43,335 nucleotides of DNA from Pseudomonas phage PaFZ4: sequence record PV610699.1; one strand, given 5' to 3'. The position numbers and the translations under genes were made by a program. Below the pieces are notes generated by a model. It was given only the letters and a program-made list of their open reading frames with translations. It was not told the origin of the DNA and made no database searches. Of the stretch, positions 37,892 through 38,476 are shown piece by piece (position 1 is the stretch's first letter; every line of letters begins with the position of its first letter).

Positions 37892-37911
37892 CGGTTATGT
37901 CACACACAATG
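37892..37911 (+). promoter_or_regulatory. Copy D of the conserved 20-bp motif (GGTTATGTCACACACAATGG), the only copy on the plus strand. It faces away from all genes into the purine-rich terminal region.
   Basis: Same motif as copies A, B and C but inverted relative to them. Confidence 0.45.
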
Positions 37912-38263
37912 GACAAATAGGCGTCCATCAGCGCCGCAGGTGCGACCGAGCAGGCGAGGGAGTGGCGAGGCAAGACCGCAGGACCAGCGCAGCGCCCCAG
38001 GCAGAGCCAGGGAGATAGACCAGCACCCAGGGAGCGACAGGTAGAGCCGGGAAGCGACAGGGAGCAGGACTAGACAGGGCAGGTAGAGGCGAGTAGAGTA
38101 CGTGGCCTAGAGGGAGTGGCCAGGTAGGCCCTAGGCAGAGCCAGGACCACCCAGGCAACGCCAGGTAGAGCCAGGTACAGCCAAGAGGCAATGCCAGGCA
38201 CAAGAGGCAAGGCTAGCCACTCCCGCACCACCACCCGACAGGACCACAGAGGAGGCAGACAGG

Positions 38264-38476
38264 ATGCTGAGCAGACAGGACAGAGGCGAGCGAGCCTGGC
38301 ACCAACGCGACGCGGCATGGCAGAGGAAGCTAGCCAAGTGGGCAGCAGAGGATGAGCAGCACAGCCCGTACCCAGCGGCCAGGGCCAGGGCCAAGGATGA
38401 CCGAAGGCTAGCGCTGGTGGCGCACCGCAGGGCGCTGAGTATGAGCCGATGGACCGCCACCCCGCCAGGGGCTTGA
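38264..38476 (+). CDS. Candidate plus-strand ORF (70 aa, Arg-rich) with GAGGAGG RBS 8 nt upstream. Doubtful because it lies in a stop-codon-poor region.
   Basis: Excellent SD. Downstream of motif copy D and a GA-rich leader, a layout parallel to copy B, its leader and the 83-aa gene. Confidence 0.25.
   Translation: MLSRQDRGERAWHQRDAAWQRKLAKWAAEDEQHSPYPAARARAKDDRRLALVAHRRALSMSRWTATPPGA

Follow-up and report, generated by a model that had tools for sequence, protein, structure and literature searches.

Within the phiKMV-like Pseudomonas phages (Phikmvvirus), transcription has been described in LUZ19, whose transcription start sites were mapped by ONT-cappable-seq (Putzeys et al. 2024, Microlife, PMC10914365). 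Five strong promoters are found at the left end of that genome, and four promoters have the motif 5'-GgtTATGTCACacACAnnGG-3' in common: a pair just downstream of the RNA polymerase (RNAP) gene, a single one in the structural region, and P001, which is inverted and lies in the early region. P001 has the left terminal repeat on one side and the sigma70 early promoters on the other, and is directed opposite to all genes. Its transcripts reach and cross the right end, where they overlap gp47-gp49, and the same antisense promoter motif is present in 15 other Phikmvvirus species. The product is treated as an antisense RNA, for which a role as insulator was proposed (PMC10914365). Here, the corresponding segment of Pseudomonas phage PaFZ4 is considered (positions 37892 to 38476 of record PV610699.1, a stretch of 43,335 nucleotides (nt) that was analysed as a whole and is called the window). 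It carries, on the plus strand, an inverted copy of the promoter motif, a leader with a low T content and an open reading frame (ORF) of 70 codons.

More distantly, the left end of T7 and T3 has the same layout, with a terminal repeat, a repeat-rich and compositionally skewed non-coding stretch and a cluster of strong host promoters. The leftward host promoter A0 of T7, at nt 224, resembles in its placement a leftward sigma70-type promoter near the end of the PaFZ4 genome, and both phages have a phage-RNAP promoter near the left end. However, phiOL of T7 is directed rightward while P001 is directed leftward, and the two left ends have no sequence similarity. The likeness in composition is a loose one, and the depleted base is G in T7 (11% in 161-400) and A on the equivalent strand in PaFZ4. 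The 160-bp terminal repeat of T7 is not known to encode a protein.

On the basis of the comparison with relatives, the PaFZ4 segment, at the physical left end of the genome, is likely to be transcribed as a leftward unit, with an ORF that is a real small gene. For Phikmvvirus, neither the motif nor the plus-strand RNA is new, and the ORF is already present in the databases as an uncharacterised call. The present analysis adds the place of the ORF inside the terminal repeat and comparative evidence for coding, a conserved leftward host-type promoter that is interlocked with the stop codon of the ORF, and the rejection of two ideas, that of a sponge RNA and that of a motif shared between two leaders. 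The LUZ19 study makes no mention of a conserved ORF, of its location in the terminal repeat, of the T-depleted leader or of the downstream sigma70-type promoter (PMC10914365).

The inverted phage promoter and the genome end

An earlier reading of the PaFZ4 sequence without database searches (the sequence-only reading) had noticed an inverted motif copy, motif D, on the plus strand, and this copy is present at 37893-37912, within 1 nt of where it had been placed. Three motif-related copies occur on the minus strand, starting at 17091, 16878 and 2600; the first two are located directly after the RNAP gene (17095-19593) and the third within a structural gene of 1337 amino acids (aa). The four copies of the window are thus distributed exactly as the four LUZ19 promoters, and by sequence and placement motif D is the known Phikmvvirus promoter of the phage-specific, single-subunit RNAP. 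It heads toward the left genome end, away from the early genes, the first sigma70-like promoter of which (37721, about 170 nt away) has the divergent orientation. Together with about 75 nt downstream, it is invariant in all 16 relatives that were aligned. Since the transcripts of its LUZ19 orthologue P001 have been mapped and run leftward (PMC10914365), plus-strand transcription is documented for a close relative, and by orthology it would extend to PaFZ4. The RNA on which the sequence-only reading had staked its proposal therefore exists in LUZ19; the two phages differ in that LUZ19 has transcription mapping, while the PaFZ4 unit is predicted from sequence.

The location at a genome end becomes apparent from the records of the relatives. 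Phikmvvirus records matching 37400-39000 number 93, at 80-93% identity. Those of PpY1, phiKMV and LUZ19, deposited from the physical left end, start at window positions 38644-38648 and head to lower coordinates, and the right-end records of phiKMV, phikF77 and 130_113 end at 38213-38215. This mapping identifies the window as a complete phiKMV-like genome that is reverse-complemented and permuted, and in which the direct terminal repeat is collapsed to one copy. A second copy of the repeat is absent from the window, and all long ORFs are found on the minus strand. For the length of the repeat, the annotations give 414 bp (phiKMV) and 472 bp (LUZ19), and 440 bp has been reported for PpY1 (PMC11596505). 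Reverse-complemented, the plus strand from 37893 to 38645 gives the leftmost 750 nt or so of the phage, consisting of the inner part of the terminal repeat and of unique DNA up to the early promoters. Five of the latter are found on the minus strand, where 0.5 sigma70-like sites are expected in shuffles of the region; they diverge from the P001-type promoter and correspond to the LUZ19 early promoters P002-P006.

A nick-site consensus, CGACN5CCTACTCCGG, was considered as the identity of the promoter motif and was rejected, being a different element with zero matches inside 37892-38476. Separately, four exact copies of CGACNNNNNCCTACTCCGG were observed in the window, all on the minus strand (13408-13426, 23771-23789, 31690-31708 and 35339-35357). 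This motif has been linked to localized single-strand nicks in phiKMV-like genomes (cited in PMC3604761), and its core, CCTACTCCGG, has been reported at four LUZ19 positions.

The 70-codon open reading frame in the terminal repeat

The ribosome-binding site and the ORF are as they had been described from the sequence: GAGGAGG, 8 nt, an ATG at 38264 and 70 aa up to 38476. The homologous region was compared in 23 of the approximately 90 relatives. The ORF is intact in 21 of these, with 63 to 73 codons in at least six sequence types (window/phiKMV, LUZ19/MPK7, LKD16, Ab05/AIIMS, S1 and PJNP013) that have the same Shine-Dalgarno (SD) sequence and ATG; an SD-like AGGAG or GAGGAG at similar spacing and the ATG are kept in all relatives examined. 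In most of them, the ORF ends with a TGA that is part of a conserved TTGACA. The relatives have the first 22 codons in common, and beyond these the ORF occurs in at least six strongly diverged versions.

The scarcity of T had been seen as a weakness of the ORF, and rightly so: when the variable two-thirds is shuffled with its dinucleotide composition preserved, it is open 10-37% of the time. In such a composition, a single ORF of 70 codons is not significant alone, and the evidence comes from the comparison with relatives. The chance that all six versions are open is about 1e-4 (the product of 0.10-0.37 per version) if they are independent. Among the 20 distinct intact sequences, none is interrupted by a stop in the ORF frame, while each of the other five frames has stops in some. 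Within types, variable sites at codon positions 1, 2 and 3 amount to 51, 41 and 79, respectively (8, 9 and 23 in type A alone). Variable codons that differ only synonymously make up 51 of 116 in the ORF frame (44%) and 98 of 570 in the other five frames (17%; Fisher p = 2e-9); the fraction of 0.44 compares with a range of 0.07-0.35 across these five. Two invariant residues are encoded by codons of different families, Ser64 by AGC in 10 sequences and TCC in 9, and Arg65 by CGA in 9 and AGG in 8. In the variable part, the cross-type BLOSUM62 local score has a mean of 48.3 in the ORF frame versus 24.7-35.0 in the other frames. On these comparative signatures, the ORF is probably a genuine gene under moderate constraint, the translation of which is predicted. 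The small Arg-rich protein that had been offered as one of two possibilities thus gains ground, with the frame kept in relatives and signatures of coding present.

Several points weigh against a gene. The coding constraint is moderate, with a ratio of nonsynonymous to synonymous polymorphism (pN/pS) of about 0.6 in a protein-guided alignment. Over the first 22 codons, the nucleotide sequence itself is conserved, including its synonymous sites, and therefore part of the conservation of the ORF is not at the protein level. In type A, the antisense frame that shares the wobble positions is nearly equal to the ORF frame, with 16 versus 17 synonymous-only codons; overall it reaches 35% synonymous-only, but it has stops in several types and a start outside the genome end. 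Deletions interrupt the ORF in Pa-B (49 nt) and in SZP17 (11 nt), and both of these records are flagged UNVERIFIED. The reference annotations of phiKMV and LUZ19 do not include the ORF, the LUZ19 transcriptome paper does not refer to it (PMC10914365), and no proteomic or ribosome-profiling evidence of its translation was found in the literature searched. Finally, the comparison covers a quarter or so of the known relatives, and the six types of the ORF are mosaic and not fully independent.

It could be imagined from these points that the P001 RNA is purely non-coding, an antisense or insulator RNA that collides or pairs with late read-through at the concatemer junction, and that the ORF is an untranslated by-product of T-depletion, which makes stop codons rare, and of conservation of the repeat at the DNA level. 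An insulator role is what the authors of the LUZ19 study proposed (PMC10914365), and such an RNA would be in accordance with the ease with which an open frame of this length arises in the shuffles (10-37%), with the other frames, on both strands, that are also open in many relatives, with the 5' third of the ORF being conserved at synonymous sites too, and with the two records carrying deletions. However, it leaves unexplained the excess of third-position and synonymous changes, the change of codon family at invariant residues (AGC/TCC for Ser, CGA/AGG for Arg), the preserved SD and ATG, and the fact that, of all frames, only that of the ORF is open in each of the six divergent versions. We consider this explanation unlikely in its exclusive form; a non-coding and a coding role of the transcript are not mutually exclusive.

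The same region has also been annotated in the other direction. Several GenBank records carry long minus-strand ORFs, which in the window correspond to 38070-38600 and 38131-38655, and automatic "hypothetical protein" calls over 38070-38655 are found in PQ859843, PV565007, OQ319930, ON857933 and OQ652145. With 174-176 codons, on the strand of all other genes and similarly called by automated annotation, these might be taken for the real genes of the region, and one of them shares the wobble positions of the plus-strand ORF, so that it mimics its synonymous pattern in type A. Yet they contain stops in other sequence types, have different boundaries in every record and have no PHROG match; their translations are of low complexity and rich in Pro, Leu, Cys and Trp, one of them begins outside the left end of the genome, and they lie upstream of all early promoters. 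They are what chance yields from the depletion of A on that strand. That they are the real genes is very improbable; the calls are probably artefacts of this A-depletion.

The product predicted for the plus-strand ORF, which includes the peptide stretch MLSRQDRGERAWHQ, is basic, with an isoelectric point of about 11 (10.5-11.6 across all versions). An AlphaFold2 (AF2) model has helices at residues 4-33 and 37-64 with a pLDDT of 79, and the product is probably a basic, Arg/Trp-rich two-helix hairpin, as predicted by this model. It matches PHROG 31366 (unknown function) over its full length (E = 2e-39), which is its sole match in PHROGs, and it is 96% identical to the RLP protein. Pfam searches returned no family and a sequence search of the PDB no match, and Foldseek of the AF2 model against the PDB and BFVD gave nothing at E < 1; a two-helix hairpin fold of this kind is too generic to inform on function. 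A HMMER profile search against 1.84 billion representatives recovered Phikmvvirus versions only, plus one chimeric-looking entry of 212 aa. In GenBank, the same ORF has been called as a hypothetical protein in RLP (RLP_0032), SB (PhageSB_015), Henu, DL62 (AKF13916), S1 (vBPaeS1_57) and PJNP013. These calls, as the PHROG 31366 entries, concern the same ORF and differ from the present treatment in being automatic, without analysis or function, while some records annotate the conflicting minus-strand ORFs instead. The nanoLUZ19v annotation is automatic RAST output and uninformative for the ORF, a knockout study in PpY1 does not obviously cover it (PMC11596505), and literature searches for the ORF or for a gene in a terminal repeat found nothing.

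Table 1. Features at the left end of the PaFZ4 genome, in window coordinates
Feature	Position	Strand	Remarks
Five tandem sigma70-like early promoters	37209-37721	-	TTGACA + TA...T hexamer, 10/12 matches each
Phage-RNAP promoter, orthologue of LUZ19 P001	37893-37912	+	Reads GGTTATGTCACACACAATGG; fits 5'-GgtTATGTCACacACAnnGG-3' at every specified position
5' leader, about 350 nt, T-poor	37913-38263	+	Three near-invariant blocks and variable CAGG-type repeats
Direct terminal repeat	38214-38645	none	Boundaries +/- 3 nt, deduced from the record ends of relatives
Shine-Dalgarno sequence GAGGAGG	38249-38255	+	8 nt before ATG 38264; read from sequence
70-codon ORF, PHROG 31366	38264-38476	+	Wholly inside the terminal repeat
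Putative sigma70-type promoter, TTGACA-16 nt-TAGAAT	38473-38500	+	11/12 consensus positions; inside the terminal repeat
Small conserved hairpin GGGC-AAGGAA-GCCC	38511-38524	+	On P001 and sigma70 transcripts; loop AGGGAA in most relatives
Short tandem array, CCAGCCAGCCT x 3.1	38701-38734		Just outside the outer edge of the repeat

The leader and the edges of the repeat

Between the promoter and the ORF, a GA-rich leader had been described. From 37912 to 38213, its composition is 28.5% A, 38.7% G, 26.5% C and 6.3% T, while T makes up 20.9% of the genome. The leader region is the only stretch of the genome, on either strand, with 300-nt windows below 10% T. The anomaly is therefore a depletion of T rather than purine richness as such: the scarcity of T stands, and a simple GA-richness does not, with C at 27%, nor does the extent, which exceeds the leader on both sides. 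The depletion spans approximately 37800-38670, that is, the whole terminal repeat and about 100 nt upstream of the P001-type promoter, and thus belongs to the entire segment of about 850 nt ahead of the early promoters and not to the leader RNA alone.

Alignment of 16 relatives distinguishes three near-invariant blocks in the leader, at approximately 37913-37990, 38061-38127 and 38202-38248, the last of which is located at the repeat boundary. Their conservation is greater than that of the ORF. Between the blocks are stretches of CAGG-type repeats in units of about 10 nt, where the relatives differ by insertions and deletions (indels) while the blocks are kept. CAGG is observed 19 times in the leader versus 9.0 +/- 2.4 expected, and neighbouring copies are mostly 10 or 20 nt apart. 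The resulting array, with a period of about 10 and a copy number that varies among relatives, is found within 37996-38200, on the inner side of the repeat. As in the layout of T7, short imperfect repeat arrays directly adjoin the terminal repeat on both sides, and the CCAGCCAGCCT array outside the outer edge may be the right-end counterpart of the inner-side CAGG array. The word TAGCCACTCCCGC marks the inner edge of the repeat (38214-38226), a variant of it, TAACTACTCCCGC, occurs about 40 nt beyond the outer edge (38683-38695), and its complement, GGGAGTGGC, is found twice in the conserved leader blocks (37957-37965 and 38112-38120). It is possible to speculate that these three words could be a signal tied to end formation. 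The conservation of the blocks and the extent of the T-depletion suggest a role at the DNA level at the genome end.

Taken to its consequence, such a role would reduce the ORF to a secondary matter. The leader blocks and CAGG repeats would be cis-acting DNA signals for the processing or packaging of concatemers, a counterpart of the T7 repeat arrays, and transcription from P001 would be in the service of a DNA transaction, such as the opening of the repeat, or priming across it, for its duplication. In addition to the blocks being more conserved than the ORF and the repeats varying by whole units, the layout is in accordance with this: the CAGG array abuts the inner edge of the repeat at 38214 and the second array lies beyond the outer edge, and one arm of a GGGAGTGGC/GCCACTCCC inverted repeat is located exactly at the repeat boundary. 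The T-depletion begins about 100 nt upstream of the P001 start site and so is not tied to the RNA, and the T7 region beside the terminal repeat is likewise depleted in one base (G, 11%). Moreover, pausing of the phage RNAP at the concatemer junction starts maturation in T7 and T3 (PMC3276506). On the other side, there is no sequence similarity to the T7 signals and the direction of P001 is opposite to that of T7 phiOL; G-clusters are sparse, so that the propensity to form R-loops is unremarkable; the coding signatures are unaccounted for, and a role in packaging is argued from the analogy in layout. As a replacement for a small gene, it is improbable.

At the RNA level, the leader folds with a z-score of -3.9 versus shuffles, with a long-range GGGAGUGGC/GCCACUCCC pairing. 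Compensatory support for this pairing was not seen among the relatives, and a structure is not claimed here because T to C changes in one arm go uncompensated by changes in the partner. A scan of 37600-38900 with Rfam at E <= 1 gave two chance-level matches only and no relevant family.

It had also been suggested that the leader could act as a sponge, a non-coding RNA rich in purines that titrates regulators binding to GGA; RsmA/RsmN would be candidates. The leader does contain several copies of CAGGGA and AGGA, and two conserved hairpins, one at 38511-38524 on the same transcript and one at 17021-17008 in the leader after the RNAP gene, fit the loop consensus of Rsm/Csr sites, C-ANGGAN-G, and have a stem of 4 bp. 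However, GGA is not enriched, with 11 copies in the leader versus 11.3 +/- 2.3 expected, and the sponge idea thereby fails its simplest test; A.GGA, with 5 copies versus 2.9 expected, is equalled in 82 of 500 shuffles. The Rfam scan yielded no RsmY/RsmZ-like match, the P001 transcript has a single consensus hairpin, which is located outside the leader, and such hairpins number 4 genome-wide versus 1.5 +/- 1.2 expected. There is hardly any chance that the leader acts in this way, and the proposal was dropped.

A parallel had been drawn, moreover, between this leader and the one after the RNAP gene. It holds for composition, the latter leader being 72% purine. It does not hold for a specific shared motif: the Smith-Waterman score of the two leaders is a marginal 25 versus 18.6 +/- 2.5 in shuffles, with 8 of 300 shuffles reaching 25, and the GTAGAG words of the post-RNAP leader lie in a hypervariable tract that is missing from LUZ19, phiKMV, Ab05 and PJNP013. 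A shared element of the P001 and P007 leaders was rejected, the likeness being compositional and the GTAGAG words not conserved. As an observation on the post-RNAP leader itself, the region 16930-17070 on the minus strand, between the tandem post-RNAP phage promoters, contains a hypervariable purine-rich tract and, after it, an A/T-rich block that is conserved, GATTCTAGATAGAATAGACTAA; relatives differ there by indels of 20-40 nt. Tandem phage promoters with an A/T-rich stretch are reminiscent of the primary replication origin of T7.

A putative leftward host-type promoter and conserved hairpins

The stop codon of the ORF, TGA, is located inside the -35 hexamer of a putative sigma70-type promoter. 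In all 23 relatives, neither the hexamers nor their spacing of 16 nt varies, while the spacer is found in at least six different sequences. Hexamers that are fixed while the spacer drifts are the pattern expected of a functional promoter. It is aimed at the left genome end, about 145 nt away. No report of this promoter was found, and it is absent from the main text of the LUZ19 transcriptome paper (PMC10914365).

A likely course of events can be outlined. In middle and late infection, the phage single-subunit RNAP would start at the P001-type promoter, away from the early genes, as shown for LUZ19 and transferred here by orthology. The transcript would first cross the U-poor leader beside the terminal repeat, with its three conserved blocks and variable CAGG repeats as read from the sequence, and would next enter the terminal repeat, where the SD and AUG would open the 70-codon gene, as the comparative signatures predict. 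On concatemeric or circular templates, it would pass the genome junction and run antisense to the last late genes, which has been shown in LUZ19. Lying inside a direct terminal repeat, such a gene would occur twice in the genome, and only the copy at the left end or junction would be preceded by a promoter.

Combined, these elements amount to a real gene on the otherwise "empty" strand inside the terminal repeat, expressed late from P001, with a basic helical-hairpin product that perhaps acts on the genome end and a stop codon that is interlocked with a leftward host promoter. This combination is put forward tentatively and is doubtful as a whole. In such a scheme, the product may bind the adjacent conserved blocks and CAGG repeats, for instance during concatemer processing. 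Our best guess, by inference only, is that the product binds nucleic acids as a small accessory factor, dispensable and produced late in infection; its role is a guess because there are no informative homologues or fold matches, which also counts against the gene. Conceptually, there is a likeness to HBZ of HTLV-1 and ASP of HIV-1, the products of antisense genes in the long terminal repeat regions of retroviruses, where an otherwise "empty" strand also encodes a protein and the promoter is likewise located at an end of the genome or in the terminal repeat. The biology, the polymerase and the type of genome are unrelated, and no homology is implied.

Phages of the phiKMV/LUZ19 type are candidates for therapy and chassis for engineering, and their left end and repeats are as a rule regarded as non-coding, with inconsistent annotation. 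Should the ORF be real, a gene on the opposite strand, within the repeat, has to be added to the reference annotations, and the published antisense promoter P001 gains a concrete product besides its possible role as insulator. Designs for genome reduction or rebooting that alter the ends could then remove a function. For annotation, the long minus-strand ORFs produced here by automatic pipelines are best regarded as probable base-depletion artefacts.

Some smaller elements were also observed. The hairpin of the post-RNAP leader at 17021-17008 on the minus strand, GGTC-AGGGAA-GACC, shares its hexaloop with the one at 38511-38524, which across relatives reads GGGC-A(A/G)GGAA-GCCC; both are located in non-coding RNA downstream of promoters, and both are kept in relatives. 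RNAalifold on 38506-38645 in 15 relatives found zero covarying pairs, a test that is limited by the mosaic alignment. In this otherwise mosaic part of the terminal repeat lies a further hairpin on the plus strand, CCGGC-GAA-GCCGG at 38534-38546. In other relatives it is CCAGC-GAA-GCTGG, a compensatory change of G:C to A:T, and the version of Mx1, CCGGC-GTA-GCTGG, allows a G-U pair on the plus-strand RNA only.

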